A DNA stretch of 64,000 nucleotides from Candidatus Omnitrophota bacterium (GTDB lineage Bacteria > Omnitrophota > Gorgyraeia > Zapsychrales > JAKLDJ01): assembly GCA_022703585.1 (NCBI GenBank), contig JAKLDJ010000003.1, positions 14,250-78,249 on the forward strand, read 5' to 3'. Each line of letters starts with the position of its first letter. Position 1 is the first letter of the stretch. Shown one piece after another: positions 1,027-10,608 of the stretch. Under the pieces are notes generated by a model. It did no database searches and was not told the DNA's origin. It saw only the letters and a program-made list of their open reading frames with translations. The position numbers and the translations under genes were made by a program.

Positions 1027-1185
1027 CTTTCGCTCTGCTTCGCAGCGAAAGATTGCGGGGCTCGGGATGAATGATTTCAGCAAACTTACGTTCCCGCGAC
1101 CTTCGGTCGCAGTCCGTAAGTTTAGAAATCATTCAACGAAATTCTAACCGCTAAACGTCCGCCAAAATGGCAAGGCCATTTTGGC
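1027..1185. other. Cluster of three stem-loops: 1027-1051; a composite three-helix hairpin 1069-1134; and the perfect palindrome GCCAAAATGGC-AAG-GCCATTTTGGC at 1161-1185
   Basis: Inverted repeats read directly: gaatgatttc/gaaatcattc, aaacttacg/cgtaagttt, cgcgacc-ttcg-ggtcgc. Lies between cassette boundary repeat and RHS fragment. Confidence 0.6.
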
Positions 1186-1888
1186 GAGATCTCGTCATTC
1201 CGCTTATGGCGGAATGACGGACTATACGCTAAACGCTGGTGTGTATTATTATTTCTACGATGGATTGGGAAGTGTCACTGATGTCTCAGATGCGAGGGGG
1301 AATGTGGTGGAGAGCTATTCCTACGATGTTTATGGCCAACCGTCACAGTTATCGACAATAGGCAATAGATATTACTTTACGGGAAGGGAATACGACGAAG
1401 AATCAGGGCTTTATCACTACCGTGCCCGCGCTTACTCGCCGGTGATAGGAAGGTTTTTGCAGAGGGATCCGGTGGGGTATTGGGATAGCATGAATTTGTT
1501 TTCGTATGTGAATAATAATCCAGTGAATTGGGTTGATCCGTGGGGGTTGTGCAAGGGAGATGATGAAACGGGTTGGCTAAATGAGTTAGAAAAGTTATTT
1601 GGGCCTGGAGTTGCTTTTGCCGCTGAAAATAGCGATTCTTTTCCTTCGAATGCGATACCCCCTCGACCACATCAATTTACAAATTCTGAAATTAACTGGT
1701 TTGGAGTAGAATTTGTATTAAGTTTTGCGGCAGGTGTAGCAGGAACTGCTTTTGGCATTACCCATCATCCGTACATCGCACTAGGGGCTTACGGATTAGG
1801 ATTATGGCTGGGCTATCGGACTTATCGCCAATATCGAGAATGGGGACAAGAAAATATTGATGCGTATTTTAATAGGTTAGGAATTTAA
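1181..1888 (+). CDS. Orphan C-terminal fragment of an RHS/YD-repeat protein: RHS repeat-associated core end (YDxxGR...DPWGL) followed by a ~110-aa variable tip with a glycine-zipper-like hydrophobic segment
   Basis: Motifs YSYDVYGQ, YYFTGREYDEESGLYHYRARAYSPVIGRFLQRDPVGY and DPWGL match the canonical RHS core terminus. No N-terminal RHS body is present. Start codon uncertain (TTG 1181 or ATG 1214). Confidence 0.7.
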   Translation: MARSRHSAYGGMTDYTLNAGVYYYFYDGLGSVTDVSDARGNVVESYSYDVYGQPSQLSTIGNRYYFTGREYDEESGLYHYRARAYSPVIGRFLQRDPVGYWDSMNLFSYVNNNPVNWVDPWGLCKGDDETGWLNELEKLFGPGVAFAAENSDSFPSNAIPPRPHQFTNSEINWFGVEFVLSFAAGVAGTAFGITHHPYIALGAYGLGLWLGYRTYRQYREWGQENIDAYFNRLGI

Positions 1889-1920
1889 TACAATAAAGAT
1901 TAATGAAAGGAGCTGTTTAT

Positions 1921-2190
1921 ATGCAAGTATTAAGAAGTCAGTGGCCATTGCTAGTGGCTAGTCTGTTACTCGCAATCGGAGCAATGATTGGGTTTTATGA
2001 ATTAAACAGTAAGATGTATAGCTATCTGATTATGAAGATTACGAAAATGAATCCCGAGGGGAATATAATATATCTTAAAAGATTTTTTTATGCTTGCACA
2101 ATGATTAATTTAACTCAATTATGTATGACTTTCTTTAGCGGGTGCGCTATTGCAGCATTCTTAGCTAATAGGCGTAAAAAGGAAGAATAG
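1921..2190 (+). CDS. Small membrane protein (one TM), putative cognate immunity protein of the RHS tip
   Basis: RBS AAAGGAG 8 nt upstream of ATG 1921. Position immediately 3' of toxin tip. The longer frame from 1903 is less likely. Confidence 0.45.
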   Translation: MQVLRSQWPLLVASLLLAIGAMIGFYELNSKMYSYLIMKITKMNPEGNIIYLKRFFYACTMINLTQLCMTFFSGCAIAAFLANRRKKEE

Positions 2191-2608: not shown

Positions 2609-4615
2609 ATGAAAGACAGGAATTATATTATTAAAGGAAGTTTGGGCATCCTTTTGCTGCTGTTCTCAGCAGCGGCCGGTTCTCCGGCGCAGGCTTCTCT
2701 TATCAATCCGGTTATGGTCCAGGGCCGACAGTTATTGGTGGACTTTGACGGGAATGATATTTATGAGCCGTATATGATCAGGGGAGTTGCCTATAATCCT
2801 TATCCGGTAGGTGTTTTTCCGACAGAATGGGGGACATGCGAGTATTGTGCGGGCGGGGTGCCTTCAGGTTGTTTTTATAGTTCGGCCGGAGACGGGGGAT
2901 ATGCCTGTTCGGTCGAACATCCGCCGACTGACCCCGGCCAAAACGGTGGCCCTGTGCATCCCTGGGGAGGGCAATCCTGCGGCGGTGTGTTGCCTTTTCC
3001 TAATTTGTGCGTCAATCTTTTTGACCGAGGGGATGTTAATCTGGACAGGGATTTTCAAAAGTTAGTGACGATGAACGTCAACACCATCCGCACCTGGGAA
3101 AAGGTCACGCCGACACTTTTAGCAAAAGCCAATCAATACGGAATCAAGGTTATTGCCGGTTACTGGATAGGCGAGGTCACGGATTTTAGCGACCCCGGAA
3201 CCCAGGTGGGTGCCTTAAAAAATGATTTTCGAAATTATATCCAGCATATGGTTGCCGACCCGAATTTTTCCGCCGTTCTTTTTGTGGCTATCGGCAACGA
3301 AAACAATTACCACTATTACTTGCCCGGTGATCCCCGGCCTCCCGAGGCTCCCTATTGTTATTTTTCGCCCAGCGATGGGCCCGAAACCGGGAATTTGTAC
3401 AGTTGGTACTTTCTGGTTAATCAGTTAGCCGGCGTGGCTAAAGGCGTTATTGGCATGAACAGGCCGGTGGCGGCGGTTAACGGCGACATAGTAGAAATCG
3501 GCCAGGCGATTTATTATGCCGATGACAGCCACATGGCCAATCTTGATATTTGGGGTGTGAATGTCTATCGGGGAATTTCTTTCGGCAATTTATTTACGAA
3601 TTTTGCCAGCCACAGCCAAAAGCCGCTATGGATTTCCGAGTGCGGGGTTGACGCGGTCTCGATGAATGATTTTTATGATGCCCCTCCGGATCCTCCCTAT
3701 GATCCCCAAGACGGGCAAGAAGCCCCGGAAACACAAGCCCGGTGGAATGCTGTTCAGTGGCGGGAGATTGTGATGAATCGTACGATTGCCATTGGTGCTA
3801 CCTATATGGAATATTCGGATGAATGGTGGAAGGGTGTTGTCCAAGACCAATATCATTGGGATTCCTTTACCCGGGAGCACAATTATTCAGGTATTTGCCA
3901 CCAATACGAGCCTTCCGTGGGAGTTTTGCCCGACAGCTACTTTAACGAAGAATGGTGGGGCCTGATGGAGGCCTCGACGGATCAAGGGCCGGGCGTTGAT
4001 ACTCTGGTTGAGCGCGATGCGTATTATGCGCTACGCGATAATTTTACCTGCGATAGCGAGCCTAACGTGTTTTATACGGGGCCGTATAACAGCAGAAGCT
4101 GTGACGGGACATACGCGTGTTGTCCGACGGCAAGCAAGATGGCCAAAAACGGCCAATGTGTCGCAAGTTGCGGCGGCTGTTTCCTTGCCGGAACCCCCAT
4201 ATCCATGGCAGACGGTTCTTTCAGGCCGATTGAATCGATTAAAATCGGCGATATGGTTTTGGCTTATGATGAAACAAGCGGTCAAATTAAACCCGATGAA
4301 GTCACCAATGTCTTTAACCATCCCAAAGAAGATAACTACCTTATTATTAACGGCCAGCTTAAAGTCACGCCGATTCATTCCGTCCTGAGTAAAGGGGAGT
4401 GGCGGCCGATCGGAGAGCTTAAAGTGGGGGATACTCTGACCGACCCGGCAGGTAAAGACATCTCTATTGTCAGCATTGTTCCGGTTCAGGAAAAAATCGA
4501 TATCTTTAATTTTGAAACCAGTCCGCACCATACCTATATTGCCGGCGGGTATGTTGTGCATAATCGGAAAATGGATATACACTTCGCCGTATTTCCGGAA
4601 GGCGGGGAGCGATGA
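2609..4615 (+). CDS. Secreted clan GH-A (GH5-like) glycoside hydrolase with Cys-rich insert and a C-terminal Hint (Hedgehog/intein-like) autoprocessing domain (about 4178-4564)
   Basis: Signal peptide (MKDRNYIIKGSLGILLLLFSAAAGSPAQA). Candidate acid/base motif IGNENN and nucleophile motif WISECG. The Hint block opens with CFLAGTPI and closes with GGYVVHN, followed by a 16-aa tail. Confidence 0.75.
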   Translation: MKDRNYIIKGSLGILLLLFSAAAGSPAQASLINPVMVQGRQLLVDFDGNDIYEPYMIRGVAYNPYPVGVFPTEWGTCEYCAGGVPSGCFYSSAGDGGYACSVEHPPTDPGQNGGPVHPWGGQSCGGVLPFPNLCVNLFDRGDVNLDRDFQKLVTMNVNTIRTWEKVTPTLLAKANQYGIKVIAGYWIGEVTDFSDPGTQVGALKNDFRNYIQHMVADPNFSAVLFVAIGNENNYHYYLPGDPRPPEAPYCYFSPSDGPETGNLYSWYFLVNQLAGVAKGVIGMNRPVAAVNGDIVEIGQAIYYADDSHMANLDIWGVNVYRGISFGNLFTNFASHSQKPLWISECGVDAVSMNDFYDAPPDPPYDPQDGQEAPETQARWNAVQWREIVMNRTIAIGATYMEYSDEWWKGVVQDQYHWDSFTREHNYSGICHQYEPSVGVLPDSYFNEEWWGLMEASTDQGPGVDTLVERDAYYALRDNFTCDSEPNVFYTGPYNSRSCDGTYACCPTASKMAKNGQCVASCGGCFLAGTPISMADGSFRPIESIKIGDMVLAYDETSGQIKPDEVTNVFNHPKEDNYLIINGQLKVTPIHSVLSKGEWRPIGELKVGDTLTDPAGKDISIVSIVPVQEKIDIFNFETSPHHTYIAGGYVVHNRKMDIHFAVFPEGGER

Positions 4616-4649
4616 GTTTTTAGGGTATTGAGTGGGATGTGATTTTAAA

Positions 4650-4709
4650 GGGCGCCCCCACTGCTGTCTTGCGACAGCAAGACATGGGGGCGCCCTCTTT
4701 GTTTTATTC
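4650..4709 (+). terminator. Rho-independent terminator (GGGCGCCCCCA...TGGGGGCGCCC stem followed by TCTTTGTTTTATT)
   Basis: GC-rich inverted repeat plus T-run immediately after the GH5-Hint stop. Confidence 0.8.
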
Positions 4710-4767: not shown

Positions 4768-4796
4768 TTGACAAAGTAACTAGACTATGTTATATT
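4768..4796 (+). promoter_or_regulatory. Sigma70-type promoter (TTGACA-17-TATATT)
   Basis: Consensus -35 and near-consensus -10 with 17-nt spacer ending 5 nt before ATG 4801. Confidence 0.55.
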
Positions 4797-4800
4797 TCAA

Positions 4801-5124
4801 ATGAGCTTAAAGAAAGGGTTCTCCATGAGGAAAGAATCTGCTGAGAAATTCGACGTGTTCATTAAACCGGAGGATCCGGTTTATGTTATTGGCGTCGTAA
4901 GCCAGATCGTCAATATCCCCATTTGGACACTGCGGAAACTCGACGAGATGGGAGTTGTTCAGCCGATACGGATAGGGAAGAAGACGCGCTGTTATTCTAA
5001 GATACAGATTCAGAAGCTTAGCTATGTGCATTATTTGATGGAAGACAAACATGTGAATATTAGCGGTATTAAAGTAATCTTAGAAATAGGAGGTGGTGTG
5101 GAGAAGAAGGAAGACGGGCTGTAA
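4801..5124 (+). CDS. MerR-family HTH transcriptional regulator (HspR-like heat-shock regulator)
   Basis: HTH segment YVIGVVSQIVNIPIWTLRKLDEMGVV is typical of MerR/HspR. Located directly upstream of hsp20. Confidence 0.6.
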   Translation: MSLKKGFSMRKESAEKFDVFIKPEDPVYVIGVVSQIVNIPIWTLRKLDEMGVVQPIRIGKKTRCYSKIQIQKLSYVHYLMEDKHVNISGIKVILEIGGGVEKKEDGL

Positions 5125-5253
5125 GCTAAAATTTTTTTATCTTGAATTTGGCACTTAATACATCAGAGTGCTAATAGTAAAGAAGGCTGGAAAAGGTTGT
5201 CCTGCTGGCTGGTGGGTTTAAAAATTAAACTTAAAACAATACGGAGGTGTAGC

Positions 5254-5703
5254 ATGACACTAATTAATTGGAGGCCAAAGAGTGTTGATTTGTTTCGGGA
5301 ATTGGACGATGCTCAAAGCCATCTGCTCGGGCTGACGATGTTCCCCGGCCTAGAGAAGGGTTTTTTAAAAGGTGGCTGGCCGGCACTGGATGTTGAGGAA
5401 GATAAAAATAACATCAGCGTAAAGGCTGACCTTCCCGGACTAAAGCAGGAAGAAATTGAAATCAGCGTTGACGAAGATGGCATGCTTACAATCAAGGGTG
5501 AGAGGAAGTCAGAAGTTGAAAGCAAAGACAAGAATTATCATAAAGTTGAGAGAGCCTATGGGGCGTTTGAGCGGAGCCTTAGAATCGGCGTTCCCATCGA
5601 CAGAGAAAAGGTCAAGGCGGCTTACAAAAATGGTGTGTTGGAAGTTACCTTGCCTAAAATCGAGAAGACAAAACCGAAGCAGATCAAGGTGGATGTGAAT
5701 TAG
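5254..5703 (+). CDS. hsp20: Hsp20/alpha-crystallin family small heat-shock protein
   Basis: Alpha-crystallin domain (DVEEDKNNISVKADLPGLKQEEIEISVDEDGMLTIKGER...LEVTLPK). RBS GGAGG before ATG 5254. The longer frame from 5197 is rejected. Confidence 0.9.
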   Translation: MTLINWRPKSVDLFRELDDAQSHLLGLTMFPGLEKGFLKGGWPALDVEEDKNNISVKADLPGLKQEEIEISVDEDGMLTIKGERKSEVESKDKNYHKVERAYGAFERSLRIGVPIDREKVKAAYKNGVLEVTLPKIEKTKPKQIKVDVN

Positions 5704-5717
5704 ATTGAAGCGCGGGA

Positions 5718-5755
5718 GGGCGCCCCGCACCCAGCTTGCTGGGTGCGGGGCGCCC
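5718..5755. repeat. 38-bp GC-rich perfect palindromic hairpin (GGGCGCCCCGCACCCAGC-tt-GCTGGGTGCGGGGCGCCC), member of a repeated element family
   Basis: Arms are identical to those of the hairpin at 54802-54838; only the loop differs. Terminator-like position after hsp20 but no downstream T-run. Confidence 0.75.
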
Positions 5756-5787
5756 CAAAAATCATCACGGAGTGAGAAATAGCATAG

Positions 5788-5815
5788 TTGACACTCCACT
5801 GTTATTTGATATAAT
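5788..5815 (+). promoter_or_regulatory. Sigma70 promoter of the hrcA-grpE-dnaK-dnaJ operon (TTGACA-16-TATAAT)
   Basis: Consensus hexamers read directly, immediately upstream of the CIRCE operator. Confidence 0.65.
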
Positions 5816-5821
5816 ACCCCC

Positions 5822-5848
5822 TTAGCACTCTGGCGATTGGAGTGCCAG
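5822..5848 (+). promoter_or_regulatory. CIRCE operator (HrcA binding site) TTAGCACTC-N9-GAGTGCCAG
   Basis: Matches CIRCE consensus TTAGCACTC-N9-GAGTGCTAA with 2 mismatches in the right arm. Located between promoter and hrcA. Confidence 0.8.
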
Positions 5849-5942
5849 TTGGAAGCCATCAGTCGTCAGCTCTCAGCTTTCAGCCTCTAATAGCAGCTGA
5901 AGGCTGATGACCGAAAGCTGATAGCTAAACGGAGAAAAACAA

Positions 5943-6677
5943 ATGACTCCACGCAAAAACGATTCCCAGGCAAGGAAAGACAGGGTCCTTGCGATTGTTG
6001 TCGACCAGTATATCAAAAATGTGACGCCGGTCGGTTCCAGCTTTATCGTCCAGGAATATCATCTGGATTTAAGCCCGGCGACGGTGCGCAACATTCTGGC
6101 CGAACTGGAAGAGGAAGGATTTCTGTCGCATCCGCACACCTCGGCCGGGCGCGTTCCCACGCAACGGGGTTATCGCTATTTTGTCGACCACCTGATGAAC
6201 GAGATACAGCTTTTAAAGGAAGAAAAAGAGCGTATTCAGGCCGAATACCGCCGCGGGGTTAAGGAATTAGAAAAGCTCTTGGAAAAAACCTCTGAAGTCA
6301 TTTCTGATCTAACGCATTACACCAGCATTGTTTCGATTGACGGCGGCGAAAAGATGTTTTGTAAGGGCATTAGTTTTGTTGCCGGCTATCCCGAATTTCA
6401 TAATTTTGAGCGTATTAAACATATTATTCACGCGCTCGAAGAGAAAGAGCACATTCTGGAAGTCATCAACCGTGCCCTGGAAAAGAAGATTCAGATCTTT
6501 ATCGGAAGCGAAATTGCCTGTGAAGATATCGAAGGTTGCTCTCTGGCGATATCAAGTTTTAAGAAAGAAAACGGCCCCAGCGGGCGTATTGCGGTTTTAG
6601 GCCCCACCCGGATGGACTACGAGCGGGTGGTTTCAACGCTTGATTATTTCTCGAAATTGATGAAAGAGATTTTATAA
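5943..6677 (+). CDS. hrcA: Heat-inducible transcription repressor HrcA (short form, 244 aa)
   Basis: N-terminal wHTH and the segment VGSSFIVQEYHLDLSPATVRNILAELEEEGFLSHPHTSAGRVPTQRGYRYFVDHLM match the HrcA signature. Confidence 0.9.
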   Translation: MTPRKNDSQARKDRVLAIVVDQYIKNVTPVGSSFIVQEYHLDLSPATVRNILAELEEEGFLSHPHTSAGRVPTQRGYRYFVDHLMNEIQLLKEEKERIQAEYRRGVKELEKLLEKTSEVISDLTHYTSIVSIDGGEKMFCKGISFVAGYPEFHNFERIKHIIHALEEKEHILEVINRALEKKIQIFIGSEIACEDIEGCSLAISSFKKENGPSGRIAVLGPTRMDYERVVSTLDYFSKLMKEIL

Positions 6678-6697
6678 GTAGGTATAAAGGAAAAAAT

Positions 6698-7393
6698 ATG
6701 TCTGATGCGAGTGAGAAAATGAAACCGTCGCAAGAAAAACAGGATGAAGTGCTCAAGCAAGAGCAACCCGGGCTTGAGCCCGAAGCCCCCATAGAATCTT
6801 TAGGCGAAAAGAAAGAAGGGCCTAAAAAAGGCGAAGGCAAGAAGGAGAAATCTTTCTTCTCAAAAGAAAAGACAATCGCGCTTAAGGAATCCGAGTATGA
6901 CAAGCTTGTGCACGAAGCCGCGGAATTTAAGGATAAATACGTGCGGCTGTTGGCGGAGTTTGATAATGTCCGCAAGCGCACCGACCGCGAAAAACAGGAA
7001 TTTGTTAAATATGCCAACGAAGGTCTGCTGGCGCAGTTTTTAGCGATCTTAGACGATTTGGAAAGATCCGTCGAGGCGGCTAAAGCCAAGCACGAAGATT
7101 ACGATGCTTTTTTAAAAGGGATCGAAATGGTGATGGCGCATGTTTACGAGTTATTAAAGAAAAACAACGTCAAACCTATCGAGGCGAAAGGGAAAATGTT
7201 CGATCCTCATCTTCACGAGGCCTTGATGCAGGAAGAGACGGATCAATTTAAGGAAGGGGCTATTGTCGAGGAATTTCAAAAAGGTTATTTTTTTGACAAT
7301 CATGTTATTCGCACGGCAAAAGTGAAAGTGGCAACTGCTAAAACCGCAAAAGGTATCGCAAAGGACGCAAAAGAAGAACAACCAAACAACTAA
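6698..7393 (+). CDS. grpE: Nucleotide exchange factor GrpE
   Basis: Motif YVRLLAEFDNVRKRTDREKQEF and operon position. Confidence 0.9.
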   Translation: MSDASEKMKPSQEKQDEVLKQEQPGLEPEAPIESLGEKKEGPKKGEGKKEKSFFSKEKTIALKESEYDKLVHEAAEFKDKYVRLLAEFDNVRKRTDREKQEFVKYANEGLLAQFLAILDDLERSVEAAKAKHEDYDAFLKGIEMVMAHVYELLKKNNVKPIEAKGKMFDPHLHEALMQEETDQFKEGAIVEEFQKGYFFDNHVIRTAKVKVATAKTAKGIAKDAKEEQPNN

Positions 7394-7425
7394 AATTGAT
7401 TTTATATTAAAAAGCGAGGTGTGTT

Positions 7426-9375
7426 ATGGCTAGAGTTATCGGAATCGACTTAGGAACATCCAATTCAGCGGCAGCGGTTATGGAGGGTGGACGCCCGGCG
7501 ATTATCCCGTCGGCAGAAGGCGCCGGGGTAGCGTCGGGTAAGGCGTTTCCGTCATTTGTTGCCTTTACCAAAGACGGGCAGCGTTTAGTCGGCGAGCCGG
7601 CGCGGCGTCAGGCAGCGATTAATTCCGAAGGGACCATTTACGCGGCCAAACGCAAAATGGGCAGCGATTTTAAATTTAAGGTTTTCGGAAAAGATTATTC
7701 GCCGCAGCAGGTCAGCGCGTTTCTCTTGCAAAAGATCAAAGCTGATGCCGAGAAATATTTAGGCGATAAGGTCGAAGAGGCGGTCATTACTGTTCCCGCG
7801 TATTTTAACGACAATCAGCGTCAGGCGACCAAGGACGCGGCGGAGATTGCCGGGTTAAAGGCCCTGCGTATTATTAATGAACCGACAGCCGCTTGTTTGG
7901 CATACGGTTTGGATAAAGCCGGCAAAGAGCAAAAGATTTTGGTCTTTGACTTGGGCGGCGGGACGCTGGATGTTACCATCCTGGAAATGGGTTGGGATGA
8001 CAGCCACAAGGCGGCGACCTTTGAGGTTCTCTCGACCAGCGGCGACACCCAGCTGGGCGGTACCGACATGGACAATGTTTTGATTGATCACATCATCAAT
8101 CAATTCAAAAAAGAATCGGGAATTGATTTAAAGAATGACAAAATGGCTTTTCAAAGATTGCGCGAAGCGGCGGAAAAAGCCAAGGTCGAGCTTTCCAGTA
8201 CGGTTTCAACCGATATCAACCTGCCGTTTATTACCGCGGATTCGAGCGGGCCAAAACATTTAACCATGACCATTGACCGGGCAAAACTCGATGACCTTGT
8301 TTCTTCGATCGTTGACCGTTGCCGCGGCCCGGTGGCACAGGCCATTAAGGACGCATCAAATAAGGCCGGCAAGGATGTCAAAATTGACAAGGTTATCTTA
8401 GTCGGCGGCCCCACCCGTATGCCCATTGTTCAGAAATTTGTTGAGCAGGCGATCGGGCAAAAAATCGAGCGCGGCATCGATCCCATGGAATGCGTGGCTT
8501 TAGGCGCGGCGGTCCAGGCGGCGATCATTAAAGGCGACGCCAAAGAGGTTTTGCTATTGGACGTGACCCCGTTATCGCTGGGTATTGAAACGCTGGGCGG
8601 GATTGCGACAAAGTTAATTGAGCGCAATACGACCATTCCCACAAAAAAGAGCCAGATCTTTTCGACCGCCGAAGATAATCAGCCGGCGGTGACCATTCGG
8701 GTTTTGCAAGGCGAGCGGCAAATGGCCAATGACAATACCGAATTAGGCCGGTTTGATTTAGTCGGCTTGCCTCCGGCGCCGCGCGGCGTTCCTCAAATTG
8801 AGGTTGCCTTTGATATTGATGCCGACGGCATCGTGCATGTTTCCGCGAAAGATAAGGGAACCGGTAAAGAGCAATCGATTAAAATCACCGCTCCCAAGAA
8901 ACTCTCCGAGGAAGAAATCCAGAAAATGGTCAAAGAGGCGGAAAAATTTGCCGAGGATGACAAAAAGAAAAAAGAAGAAGTGGAGATCCTTAATCAGGCG
9001 AATACCTTTGTCTACGCGACCGAGAAGTCTTTAAAAGAATACGGCGATAAGGTTTCGCAGGCTGACCGGGCGAATATTGAGCAAGAGCTTAATTCGCTTA
9101 AAGAGGCGATTAAAAATAAGGACCAGGGTAAAATCAAATCCGGCATGGAATCGCTTCAAAAAGCGGCACATAAATTGGCCGAAGAGATTTACAAGGCCAC
9201 GGCCGCGCAACAGGCCCAGGGCGGTCAAACTGGGACCGGTGGCGCAAGTGGTGCCGGGCCGCAGGCCGATATGAATGCCGGCGGCAGCAGTTCCGGTGCG
9301 GATGAAGGTCCCAAAAAAGGCAAGAAAGACGATATCATCGACGCCGATTTTAAGGCGGAGGATGATAAGAAATAA
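7426..9375 (+). CDS. dnaK: Chaperone DnaK (Hsp70)
   Basis: [30 protein letters not shown] and other Hsp70 signatures. Confidence 0.97.
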
Positions 9376-9456
9376 ACAAAGCTATCGGCTATCAGCTTTC
9401 AGCTATCAGCAAAAGCTTTTAGCTGTAAGCTGACCGCTGTAAGCTGAAAGCCGGAA

Positions 9457-10608
9457 ATGAAAAAAGACTACTACCAAATCTTAGGCGTACAAAAAAGCGC
9501 AAGCTTAGAAGAAATTAAAAAAGCATATCGAAGTCTCGCCCTGTCCCATCACCCTGACCGGGTTCCAACGGAAATGAAAAAAGAGGCCGAGGAGAAATTT
9601 AAAGAAATCTCCGAGGCCTATGCTGTTTTATCCGATCCGCAAAAGCGCGCCATGTACGACCAGTACGGCCATTCCGGAATCGACCAGCGCTATACATCCG
9701 AGGACATTTTTAAAGGAGCGGATTTTAGCAGTATTTTTGAAGGGTTATCGGATTTTGGCTTGGGCGGCGGTTTATTTGACCAAATCTTTGGGGATGTTTT
9801 TGGGTCGGGTTCTTCTTCGGGGCGCGGGCGCCGTGTCCGCCGGGGCAGGGATATTCACTATGAAACGGAATTAACTTTAGAAGAGGCTTTTAGCGGTATA
9901 AAGAAAAATGTTAAAGTTCCGCGTCACGAAACCTGCACCGATTGTAACGGAACAGGTGCCAAGCCCGGAAGTAAGTCTAAAACCTGTCCTGCCTGTCGCG
10001 GCCAAGGGGCCGTGATTACAAATTTGGGCGGTTTTGGCCGCATCCAGCAGACCTGTCCTCAATGCCGGGGTGAAGGAAAAATTATTTCCGAATACTGTCC
10101 TAAATGCCAGGGGCAGGGAGCGGTGCGTGTTACCAGAAATATTGAAGTCCAGTTTCCTGCGGGCGTTGACAGCAATTCTCAGCTGAGGGTGAGAGGCGAA
10201 GGCGAGGGTAGTGCCGGCGGCAAAGGGGATTTGTATATCTCCATTGCGGTTAAGCAGCATCCGACTTTTCAAAGAGAAGGAAGCGATCTTTATATGCAGC
10301 TGCCGGTTAGTTTTATCAAGGCGGCCTTAGGCGGTGAAGTATCTGTTCCTACTTTAAACGGCAAGGTAAGCATGTCCATACCGGCCGGTACGCAGAGCGG
10401 AAAGACTTTTCGTCTTAAGGGAAAGGGCATGCCAGATCTTCATCTTCATACCCCGGGCGACCAATACGTGCAGGTGATGTTGCAGGTGCCGGTGCGGTTA
10501 TCGAGTGAGCAGAGAAGGATTTTGGAAGAATATGCAAAAGTTAGCGGTGGGGATGATGTCTCGGGCAGTGATTCTTTGGCGGAAAAGATAAAGAAAGCGT
10601 TTAAATAA
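9457..10608 (+). CDS. dnaJ: Chaperone DnaJ
   Basis: J-domain (DYYQILGV...HPD), G/F region, four CxxCxGxG zinc-finger repeats. Confidence 0.95.

Follow-up and report, generated by a model that had tools for sequence, protein, structure and literature searches.

Results

The locus and its transcription unit

The window, which is the whole stretch of 64,000 nucleotides that was analysed, carries on its forward strand a complete open reading frame of 668 codons plus stop (2609..4615, + strand), coinciding exactly with the one named in the original prediction and encoding a putatively exported clan GH-A enzyme with a C-terminal Hint domain. The ATG at 2609 is the first start codon of the frame and has a GAGG some 10 nt on its 5' side, and an identical protein (P0001) bears the NCBI annotation 'Hint domain-containing protein [Candidatus Omnitrophota bacterium]'. 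The 668-aa product is built of five parts, namely a signal peptide, a GH-A glycosidase, a six-Cys module, a Hint domain of 129 aa and a tail of 16 aa. Downstream of the gene lies an intrinsic terminator (4649..4707, + strand) consisting of a 20-bp GC-rich hairpin (4649-4696) and a U-run; its RNA fold reaches -40.7 kcal/mol (z = -7.0), a stability equalled by none of 200 shuffled sequences, and a MerR gene comes after it. Because of this terminator, the GH-Hint gene is best regarded as its own transcription unit, apart from the MerR and heat-shock genes. A six-frame phmmer search of the 64-kb window found no further copy of the Hint domain.

The N-terminus, read by inspection, is that of a typical Sec signal, with a K/R n-region, a LGILLLLFSAAA core and AQA|S at residues 27-30, so that the cleavable signal peptide claimed at the outset may be placed at residues 1-29 (MKDRNYIIKGSLGILLLLFSAAAGSPAQA|S; 2609..2695, + strand). 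A helix spans residues 2-23 in the AF2 model, and homologs possess equivalent hydrophobic N-termini; the GH-Hint protein is predicted to be exported by Sec.

The glycosidase domain

Residues ~32-485 (2702..4063, + strand) form a clan GH-A (beta/alpha)8 catalytic domain, as indicated by a family profile run against the PDB, by Foldseek and by Pfam searches of family members. The profile matches GH158 (2e-24, with partial coverage), GH157 (6e-22), GH72 (6e-16) and GH2 (1e-14), while Foldseek places the model, a TIM barrel matching GH157, GH158, GH2, GH72 and GH35, closest to GH157 (5e-13) and GH158 (6e-12). Family members pass the Pfam cutoffs for Glyco_hydro_2_C and Glyco_hydro_72; the protein itself matches no GH model of Pfam (at E<=1) or of NCBIfam. 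The predicted acid/base, Glu231 (GNE231NN; 3299..3301, + strand), is nearly invariant together with N230 among 35 family members, and the pair aligns with the GNE motif of GH158. The predicted nucleophile, Glu344 (WISE344CG; 3638..3640, + strand), is likewise nearly invariant in the family alignment; its counterpart in LaGH157 is Glu224, which carries the mutation in the complex with laminaritriose, 9G4N. The defining features of clan GH-A are thus all found, i.e. a (beta/alpha)8 barrel in which strand 4 is followed by the Asn-Glu acid/base and strand 7 by the nucleophilic Glu, and the barrel model agrees with the clan assignment that had been made from the motifs IGNENN and WISECG, both located where they had been reported. 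The label GH5-like has to be abandoned: GH5 occurs neither among the best 60 PDB profile matches nor among the best 50 Foldseek matches, no Pfam GH model matches the protein, and the closest families are GH158, GH157, GH72 and GH2 instead.

The best matches by both sequence profile and fold are the endo-beta-1,3-glucanases of GH157 and GH158 and the beta-1,3-glucanosyltransferases of GH72, all of which have the GNE acid/base and SE nucleophile motifs in common with the protein, GH72 also resembling it in having a C-terminal Cys-rich module; in contrast to all three, it carries clade-specific Cys-rich insertions. Its sequence predicts a retaining clan GH-A glycosidase, and beta-1,3-glucans are the substrates of the nearest relatives that have been characterised. 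Identity to GH157 and GH158 is only ~13%, and it is on this level of identity that the reading of beta-1,3-glucan as the substrate rests.

Two Cys-rich regions had been predicted, an insertion and a second linker, and both are present with six Cys each. The insertion, delimited by alignment of family members (residues 77-135; 2837..3013, + strand), is specific to a clade, being found in this protein and in P0002-P0007 and missing from P0008, P0010 and P0011; its model confidence is low (pLDDT 50-70). The second, C-terminal module (C481...C521; 4049..4177, + strand) ends in Gly-Gly immediately before the Hint domain, is modelled with short strands at pLDDT 82-89 and is recognised by the motif SCDG..ACC......K.K.G.C...C, which is kept both in orthologs with and in orthologs without Hint.

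The Hint domain and its tail

Pfam, sequence matches in the PDB, Foldseek and conservation concur in identifying a Hint domain of the type-A BIL (bacterial intein-like) / PT-HINT kind from Cys524 to Asn652 (129 aa; 4178..4564, + strand). All on the + strand are block A, represented by Cys524 (4178-4180), block B, T587-x-x-H590 (4367-4378), and block G, His651-Asn652 (4559-4564); the motif CFLAGTPI starts at Cys524 and GGYVVHN ends at Asn652, 16 residues before the C-terminus, just as first read. Pfam PT-HINT (PF07591) scores 52.3 bits over residues 534-658 (gathering cutoff 27.7, E=9e-14), a significant match of the kind by which the original prediction had proposed to check itself. Matches of phmmer in the PDB are to BIL domains and mini-inteins, including 8w20, 2lwy (a C. 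thermocellum BIL, E=9e-7) and 6tmm (Tetrahymena BIL2), and a library search with the Hint domain returned 17,135 matches at E<=1e-3; agreement on this scale is far removed from chance. The AF2 model, with pLDDT 82-97 over most of the domain and lower values at residues 651-660, superposes on the BIL structures 2lwy and 6y75 with an rmsd of 1.6-2.4 A, the Foldseek TM being 0.86 for 2lwy, 0.81 for 6y75 and 0.81 for 1mi8. Positions C1, T64, H67, H128 and N129 of the domain are invariant among 23 relatives, and the terminal His-Asn is so throughout the class (57/57). The C-terminal Hint claimed for this secreted glycosidase is therefore genuine, with every catalytic residue present and fused to a putatively exported clan GH-A enzyme.

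Type-A BIL domains are defined by a Cys or Ser as N-terminal nucleophile, a TxxH in block B, a C-terminal His-Asn of the intein kind and the lack both of Cys/Ser/Thr at +1 and of a homing endonuclease (PMC4031507), and the bacterial proteins in whose variable regions BIL domains occur are non-conserved and typically secreted (PMC7765530). By its sequence (Cys1, TxxH, His-Asn, Arg at +1, no endonuclease) the domain would be a type-A BIL by the published definition, and its location as an optional C-terminal module among positional orthologs, on exported cargo, is that of a BIL domain as well. Of the BIL/Hedgehog-type affinity originally put forward, then, the first half stands and the second does not: Pfam Hint (PF01079) reaches 25.1, below its cutoff of 29.7, no extension resembling a sterol-recognition region is present, and the His-Asn is invariant.

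The absence of an endonuclease had been rightly noted, as follows from the 129 aa of the domain; the accompanying statement that nothing extein-like continues beyond it overlooked a conserved tail. This tail has 16 aa here (RKMDIHFAVFPEGGER; 4565..4612, + strand), with Arg at +1 and Lys at +2 and hence no C/S/T nucleophile at +1, and is disordered in the AF2 model (pLDDT <50). All six GH-Hint fusions possess such a tail, 10-17 aa long and starting with RK or MK. Across the wider class of terminal Hint domains, Cys1 is present in 68/69 relatives and Lys at +1/+2 in 63/69, C/S/T occupies +1 in just 2/69, and the tail has a median length of 14 aa, remaining at <=25 aa in 57/69. No motif of a sorting signal (a transmembrane segment or a PEP-CTERM-like sequence) was seen in the tails, which show only the leading K/RK and Gly/Pro/acidic-rich ends. 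Conservation of the tail and of Lys at +1/+2 argues that cleavage at the C-terminal junction matters too.

An optional module on positional orthologs and on other exported proteins

The GH gene occupies a slot upstream of the hrcA-grpE-dnaK operon in which positional orthologs either carry the Hint domain, as do P0002 and P0011 in addition to the protein studied here, or lack it, as do P0004, P0006 and P0009, whose sequences end a few residues past the same Cys module. The Hint domain therefore behaves as an optional, shuffled C-terminal module. Across five GH-Hint fusions the identities are of similar size for the GH (47-67%) and the Hint (41-74%) parts, and the junction C-x-x-C-G-G|C-F-L/V is conserved among the fusions, which we count, at the level of sequence, as speaking for selection on the Hint module. 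A single gain of Hint within the GH family is not borne out, given that Hint-bearing members fall into two GH clades with Hint-less ones nested inside and that the Hint and GH trees are incongruent, although both are NJ trees of short alignments, calculated without bootstrap and indicative only. No partner gene beside the GH-Hint genes is conserved across loci, P0008 and P0010 lying in unrelated contexts. Members of the GH family that have no Hint domain carry Dockerin_1, CHU_C or Por_Secre_tail in the C-terminal slot; that of P0006 is dockerin-like by eye and received no Pfam confirmation at E<=1e-3. Upstream of the GH-Hint gene, at 1181-1888, lies an Rhs-core fragment (TIGR03696, E=2e-25). 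A polymorphic-toxin link through this remnant was rejected, the fragment being absent from five syntenic loci (P0002, P0011, P0004, P0006 and P0009) and neither a toxin nor an immunity gene being encoded downstream of the Hint domain.

The same Hint domain with a short tail also caps subtilases, beta-helix proteins, adhesin repeats and type IV pilin-like proteins, and there are several copies per Omnitrophota genome. Every identified cargo is of extracellular type (Ig-like, FG-GAP, PKD, cadherin, beta-helix, subtilase, C25, pilin-like), and most complete Hint-capped relatives have signal peptides or pilin-type N-termini. Searches of the accessible literature yielded no description of an extreme-C-terminal Hint cap with a short tail and nothing relevant on Hint or inteins in Omnitrophota or on Hint domains of pilins; the shared cap suggests a so far undescribed route by which surface proteins of this phylum are processed or attached.

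Discussion

Relation to known Hint systems

So far BIL and PT-HINT domains have mainly been seen as elements of toxin release or of 'variability', and to our knowledge their biological role outside toxins has not been clear since 2003. Type-A BIL domains, reportedly described by Amitai et al. 2003 and Dassa et al. 2004, resemble the present domain in length (~130 aa), in Cys1, TxxH and His-Asn, in the lack of a +1 nucleophile and of an endonuclease and in their place in variable parts of secreted bacterial proteins, the fit to the C. thermocellum domain 2LWY being the closer one (rmsd 1.6 A). In contrast to them, the class described here sits at the extreme C-terminus, has a tail of ~14 aa with conserved Lys at +1/+2 and caps many unrelated exported Omnitrophota proteins. 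The PT-HINT of polymorphic toxins (PF07591; CdiA, Rhs and MafB-type; PDB 8W20) has the same fold and catalytic blocks but is defined as lying N-terminal to the toxin that it releases, whereas our protein continues for 16 aa only, without toxin or immunity gene, and is set in a conserved housekeeping chromosomal context. The BIL2 of Tetrahymena thermophila BUBL (6TMM/6Y75; Foldseek E=7e-13 at only 26% identity) likewise has Cys1 and a terminal Asn but is eukaryotic and cytoplasmic, with ubiquitin-like flanks, a cargo absent from our class. There, the epsilon-amine of a Lys resolves the thioester into an isopeptide (PMC8616854), which provides a functional precedent for the Lys conserved behind His-Asn in our class.

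Further parallels lie outside the BIL domains. Hedgehog Hog is also a C-terminal Hint on a secreted protein, whose Cys1 thioester releases and modifies the N-terminal domain; Hog is without a terminal His-Asn and carries a sterol-recognition region. Dockerins, the T9SS CTD and LPXTG/sortase signals resemble the Hint cap in being placed on many different exported proteins per genome, and C-terminal sorting and anchoring modules hold this very slot in relatives of the GH family. Sortase works via a thioester, too, which an amine then resolves. All of these sorting and anchoring systems need a separate partner or enzyme, whereas the Hint domain, for which anchoring is hypothetical here, would be self-contained.

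A putative autoprocessing module

Taking the sequence evidence together, we consider it reasonably probable that an optional, shuffled type-A BIL module on a Sec-exported GH-A enzyme processes both of its own junctions after export. Once the protein is exported and folded, Cys524 would attack the carbonyl of Gly523 in an N-to-S acyl shift, leaving the enzyme held on the Hint domain by a thioester, and cyclisation of Asn652, assisted by His651, would cut off the 16-residue tail. The thioester could then be resolved by water, giving plain release of an enzyme ending in ...CVASCGG, or by an adjacent amine, i.e. the freed alpha-amino group of the tail or the conserved Lys at +1/+2, in which case the Hint domain would be excised and the short tail retained on the enzyme; by either route the mature enzyme would lack Hint. 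We infer all three elements of this scheme, namely that the chemistry occurs, the order of its steps and the destination of the thioester. Such a course agrees with BIL-A chemistry, in which a thioester is formed at the N-terminal side, the C-terminal junction is cut through cyclisation of Asn and cleavage products dominate, with some ligation via the freed amine (PMC4031507, PMC7664689). Three considerations speak against autoprocessing: the self-excised product would be nearly the same as the Hint-less orthologs, leaving the selective benefit unexplained; simple self-removal does not predict a strict limitation to exported cargo; and Cys524 has C521 three residues before it and 15 other Cys in the protein as a whole, so that a disulfide could trap it in the oxidising compartment for which the protein is destined.

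Transfer, ligation and other readings

The original prediction had envisaged transfer of the enzyme to a cell-surface acceptor. On such a reading the thioester would be taken by an external nucleophile, for instance an amine of the bacterium's envelope or of the surface of a host or prey cell, and the enzyme, together with the other Hint-capped proteins, would become covalently anchored, in a self-contained analogue of sortase anchoring or Hedgehog cholesterolysis. We keep this as a minority reading of rather low probability. The uniformly extracellular nature of the identified cargo is consistent with it, as are the several Hint copies per genome, reminiscent of sorting signals, the sorting and anchoring modules in the same slot of Hint-less GH relatives, and the ATP-independent conjugation by which the structurally close Tetrahymena BIL2 joins its upstream domain to Lys residues in other proteins (PMC8616854). 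On the other hand, the invariant His-Asn and the constant tail with Lys at +1/+2 would be superfluous for Hedgehog-type transfer and point to an intramolecular partner, a region for adduct recognition is absent after the Hint domain, no neighbouring gene is conserved across loci, and the Hint-less orthologs manage without it.

More doubtful still is the general proposal that a self-contained C-terminal 'Hint cap' (Cys1 ... His-Asn-Lys plus a tail of ~14 aa) serves Omnitrophota and a few other lineages as an enzyme-free and ATP-free device by which exported proteins at large are ligated. Were this so, the C-terminus of the cargo would become a thioester captured by the Lys beside the scissile Asn, as an isopeptide, or by Lys or amine groups of the envelope or of host cells, with display or covalent attachment of glycosidases, proteases, adhesins and pilins as the outcome.

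It is very improbable that the domain is a canonical intein or an inactive Hint retained for structure or binding. It does share the fold of mini-inteins and matches intein profiles weakly, but every such profile remains under its curated cutoff, Arg653 leaves no Cys/Ser/Thr at +1, no homing endonuclease is present, and the domain sits, away from any conserved catalytic site, at the very C-terminus of a secreted and non-essential enzyme, where Hint-less orthologs simply end; the invariance of Cys1, TxxH and HN, for its part, speaks against an inactive domain. Weakest of all and largely refuted is the decayed polymorphic toxin, in which a PT-HINT would once have preceded a C-terminal toxin now lost: the top Pfam family is indeed the 'pretoxin' HINT, the top PDB sequence match, 1,368 aa long, has its Hint in an internal position, and the Rhs-core fragment lies just upstream, but six independent GH-Hint fusions and most of the wider class retain their short tails, the Hint catalytic residues are intact, a strong terminator and then the MerR gene follow instead of an immunity gene, and the Rhs fragment is missing from the syntenic loci.

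Implications

The protein defines a class of terminal Hint domains with a conserved Lys past the scissile Asn and a short tail, recurring on many exported proteins in a phylum that is poorly understood and probably host-dependent. Orthologs with and without the cap at the same locus constitute natural controls, and the question of what bacterial Hint domains are for becomes directly testable on one small recombinant protein; if amines do capture the thioester, protein engineering could gain from the module a compact tag that ligates itself. The enzyme part, in turn, marks an unclassified GH-A lineage near the families active on beta-1,3-glucan.

Results

The gene at 2609..4615(+) is an unbroken reading frame of 668 codons in the ORF listing, whose first in-frame start codon, ATG 2609, has a GAGG ~10 nt upstream; because its stop codon is followed by a 20-bp GC-rich hairpin (4649-4696; fold energy -40.7 kcal/mol, z = -7 by RNA folding) and then a U-run, it is read as its own transcription unit. 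A check of the sequence found every motif quoted in the original prediction in place: a Sec-type N-terminus (residues 1-29, AQA|S), a glycoside hydrolase (GH) domain with GNE231NN and WISE344CG, two parts with six Cys each (an insertion at residues 77-135 and a module from C481 to C521), and a Hint domain that opens with Cys524-Phe-Leu-Ala-Gly-Thr and closes with His651-Asn652, followed by RKMDIHFAVFPEGGER. An identical public protein is titled 'Hint domain-containing protein [Candidatus Omnitrophota bacterium]'.

That this C-terminal domain is a genuine Hint is borne out by Pfam, where the query scores 52.3 bits against PT-HINT (gathering cutoff 27.7) and narrowly passes the Vint cutoff; at 129 aa it leaves no room for an endonuclease, as had been claimed. 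The Hint_2, intein and Hog-type Hint families all remain under cutoff, the last of which, together with the terminal His-Asn, tells against the Hedgehog-type Hint originally proposed, and NCBIfam returns intein matches only, all sub-threshold. Among PDB sequences, the top match is 8w20 (E=3e-10), a protein of 1,368 aa in which the Hint is internal; the other leading matches are the BIL (bacterial intein-like) domain of Clostridium thermocellum (2lwy; E=9e-7), BIL2 of Tetrahymena BUBL (6tmm/6y75) and the RecA and DnaB mini-inteins. In an AlphaFold2 model built from a 35-sequence family alignment (mean pLDDT 81.8; 82-97 over most of the Hint, <50 in the tail), the Hint superimposes by Foldseek on 2lwy with a TM of 0.86 and an rmsd of 1.6 A, and on BIL2 with a TM of 0.81. 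Besides Cys1 and the terminal His-Asn, it has a block B Thr587-x-x-His590 and a block F-like NFETSPHHTYIA, and its +1 residue, the first after the terminal Asn, is Arg. Type-A BIL domains are defined in reviews by an intein-like His-Asn without a +1 nucleophile; they form an N-terminal thioester, undergo Asn cyclisation and yield mainly cleavage, with some ligation via the freed amine (PMC4031507, PMC7664689, PMC7765530). Since the features in that definition are those of the query, its Hint appears, as far as sequence can tell, to be type-A in every respect, and by sequence criteria we place it in the type-A BIL / PT-HINT family. It is not an intein (the +1 residue and the sub-cutoff intein profiles speak against a canonical one), nor a Hog domain, nor does it belong to the pre-toxin functional class, the context after which PF07591 is named and which it does not share.

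The scope of this class was gauged by searching query residues 510-668 against 1.84 billion representative proteins, which gave 17,135 matches at E<=1e-3 and 183 at E<=1e-30. Among the best 150 matches, 69 single-Hint proteins with intact ends almost always begin with Cys (68/69), whereas only two show C, S or T at +1; that position holds Lys in 43 cases and Arg in another 11, and Lys occupies +1 or +2 in 63 of the 69, against a background frequency of 4.8%. Their tails have a median of 14 aa, with 57 at <=25 aa, and 57/57 Hint relatives keep the terminal His and Asn. The cargos, i.e. the parts N-terminal to the Hint, are mutually unrelated and include He_PIG and Big_9 Ig-like domains, FG-GAP, PKD, cadherin and beta-helix, as well as subtilase S8 with an I9 propeptide, peptidase C25, TadE and N-methyl pilin motifs. 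A scan with a single peptide pattern, one genome per species, recovered 42 loci, the majority in MAGs and SAGs of Candidatus Omnitrophota, some of whose genomes have 4-5 loci each, and the remainder in Planctomycetales-labelled MAGs, Thermoplasmata archaea, Myxococcota, Bdellovibrionales and Eisenbacteria; by eye, most complete ORFs have a signal peptide at the N-terminus or else G|FTLxE, as in type IV pilins, and some pilin-like proteins carry tandem Hint pairs. Within the window, the query's Hint is the only copy.

On the GH enzyme, the Hint is an optional module. Two database homologs, P0002 (65% identical) and P0011 (39%), lie in loci syntenic with the window, which share the order SPOR/TPR - miaA - hflX - (ABC-F) - GH-Hint - MerR - chaperones - hrcA - grpE - dnaK - dnaJ, and the close relatives P0004, P0006 and P0009 occupy the same slot upstream of MerR/hrcA-grpE-dnaK without a Hint, ending 10-30 residues past the common six-Cys module. 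The C-terminus of P0006 instead resembles a dockerin repeat by eye, for which Pfam gave no confirmation; remoter relatives have Dockerin_1, CHU_C or Por_Secre_tail (Pfam) in this slot. In all six GH-Hint fusions found (the query, P0002, P0008, P0010/L014, P0011 and L006) the junction reads C-x-x-C-G-G|C-F-L/V and the tail, 10-17 aa long, opens with RK or MK; across five fusions, identities are comparable in the two parts (GH 47-67%, Hint 41-74%). In neighbour-joining trees, which are unbootstrapped and built on short alignments, Hint-less members nest within two GH clades that contain Hint-bearing ones, and the GH and Hint trees are incongruent: L006 clusters with P0008 by its GH part and with the query by its Hint, and the Hint of P0010 clusters with that of L007, another cargo (1,148 aa) encoded by the P0010 genome, with a near-identical tail (RKLNYTIAFGDGNGTR vs RKLNFTIAVDGNGSNY). 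These patterns indicate, short of proof, that the module has been shuffled among cargos. At the syntenic position in the genome of P0009 (L049 7001-10276), two tandem paralogous Hint-less GH genes of the query's family encode 515 and 510 aa.

The enzyme itself belongs to clan GH-A, as originally predicted. Pfam and NCBIfam GH models do not match the query's N-terminal 520 residues; a family profile from 35 of its 231 homologs, in which N230, E231 and E344 are almost invariant, matches GH158 (2e-24), GH157 LaGH157 (6e-22), BuGH158 (4e-17), GH72 Gas2 (6e-16) and GH2 glucuronidases (1e-14) in the PDB. Foldseek ranks GH157, GH158, GH2 and GH72 on top for the model, and members of the family score above cutoff for Pfam Glyco_hydro_2_C and Glyco_hydro_72. 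The label 'GH5-like' has to be given up, GH5 being absent from the best 60 PDB matches of the profile. We take the enzyme to be retaining, from established knowledge of the clan. Query Glu344 aligns with LaGH157 Glu224, the position mutated for laminaritriose trapping in 9G4N. The enzyme's closest characterised relatives act on beta-1,3-glucans, and PMC10637969 counts GH157 and GH158 as beta-1,3-glucanase families; because identity is ~13%, this putative substrate is only suggested. The module C481-C521 (4049-4177; SCDG..ACC......K.K.G.C...C), which closes the GH domain, is kept in orthologs with and without a Hint, is modelled as short strands, and is like the GH72 Cys-rich C-terminal module in position only.

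Discussion

The catalytic residues of the query Hint are complete and under purifying selection, its cargo is exported, and the module is dispensable for the orthologous enzyme. By analogy with BIL-A biochemistry, an N-to-S acyl shift at Gly523|Cys524 would be followed by cyclisation of Asn652, which would free the short, disordered tail with its leading basic pair, and the thioester would then be resolved by water or a neighbouring amine. Because the His-Asn is invariant, the tail universal and the Lys conserved, we argue that the C-terminal reaction is probably functional and that the nucleophile may be intramolecular, either the freed alpha-amine or a Lys epsilon-amine. By established structural knowledge, both junctions come together at the active site in all Hint folds, so that a +1/+2 Lys would necessarily lie near the thioester. 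Tetrahymena BIL2, a close structural match, produces such a Lys isopeptide (PMC8616854).

Alternatively, the thioester could be transferred to an external acceptor, thereby anchoring the cargo covalently, a rival reading that suits the exclusively extracellular cargos and the C-terminal slot held in common with dockerin and T9SS domains; however, it leaves the conserved His-Asn-Lys and the tail unexplained and comes without a conserved partner gene. The features of the Hint, the synteny and fusions, and the statistics of the wider class all but exclude both a decayed polymorphic toxin and an intein, whether true or dead.

In the searchable literature we found no account of a terminal Hint that combines a conserved His-Asn-Lys with a tail of ~14 aa, of Hints capping many exported Omnitrophota proteins, or of a facultative Hint on an orthologous GH-A enzyme, and an earlier partial description of these features is possible. 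While the chemistry will not surprise an intein specialist, the query Hint offers a clean, testable system for the long-open role of bacterial Hints outside toxins.

Several further arrangements were observed. In L016, L017 and L031 (Omnitrophota and 'Planctomycetia' MAGs), short pilin-like proteins with G|FTLxE N-termini carry two tandem Hints separated by Lys and one residue only (…AHN-K-G/P-C-L-L…); single-Hint pilin-like proteins occur in L011, L012, L018 and L029, among others. Giant proteins of 2,000-4,000 aa (L030, L033, L034, L037, L038 and L042, from Thermoplasmata archaeal MAGs, and P0121, P0126 and P0130) hold several related Hints, either dispersed or arranged in tandem, with a maximum of 6 by domain count or 9 matched stretches by protein search; the archaeal contig CAZQXW010000006.1 bears several such genes, and the +1 residue in these giants is chiefly Ala, not Lys.

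Around the gene itself, an orphan Rhs C-terminal fragment (1181-1888 (+); TIGR03696 RHS-associated core, E=2e-25) ends in an uncharacterised tip of ~110 aa and is followed by a 95-aa membrane protein (1903-2190 (+)) that could be its immunity partner; upstream, another small ORF is paired with a 136-aa multi-pass membrane protein (170-517 and 554-964). This region has a GC of 0.41 vs ~0.46 and is missing from the orthologs' syntenic loci. Immediately downstream of the GH gene come a MerR-type regulator and the Hsp20/ClpB-hrcA-grpE-dnaK-dnaJ heat-shock cluster (4801-10608 (+)), an adjacency found in the window and in L001, L048, L049 and L050 at 50-65% protein divergence; because the strong terminator (4649-4696) and a sigma-70-like promoter (4768-4796; 11/12) separate the two units, their linkage may be no more than positional. 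Over 1-64000 the cumulative GC skew climbs monotonically, and nearly all ORFs >=150 aa between 1 and ~54 kb lie on the + strand, consistent with one replichore with strong co-orientation of genes and replication across the window.
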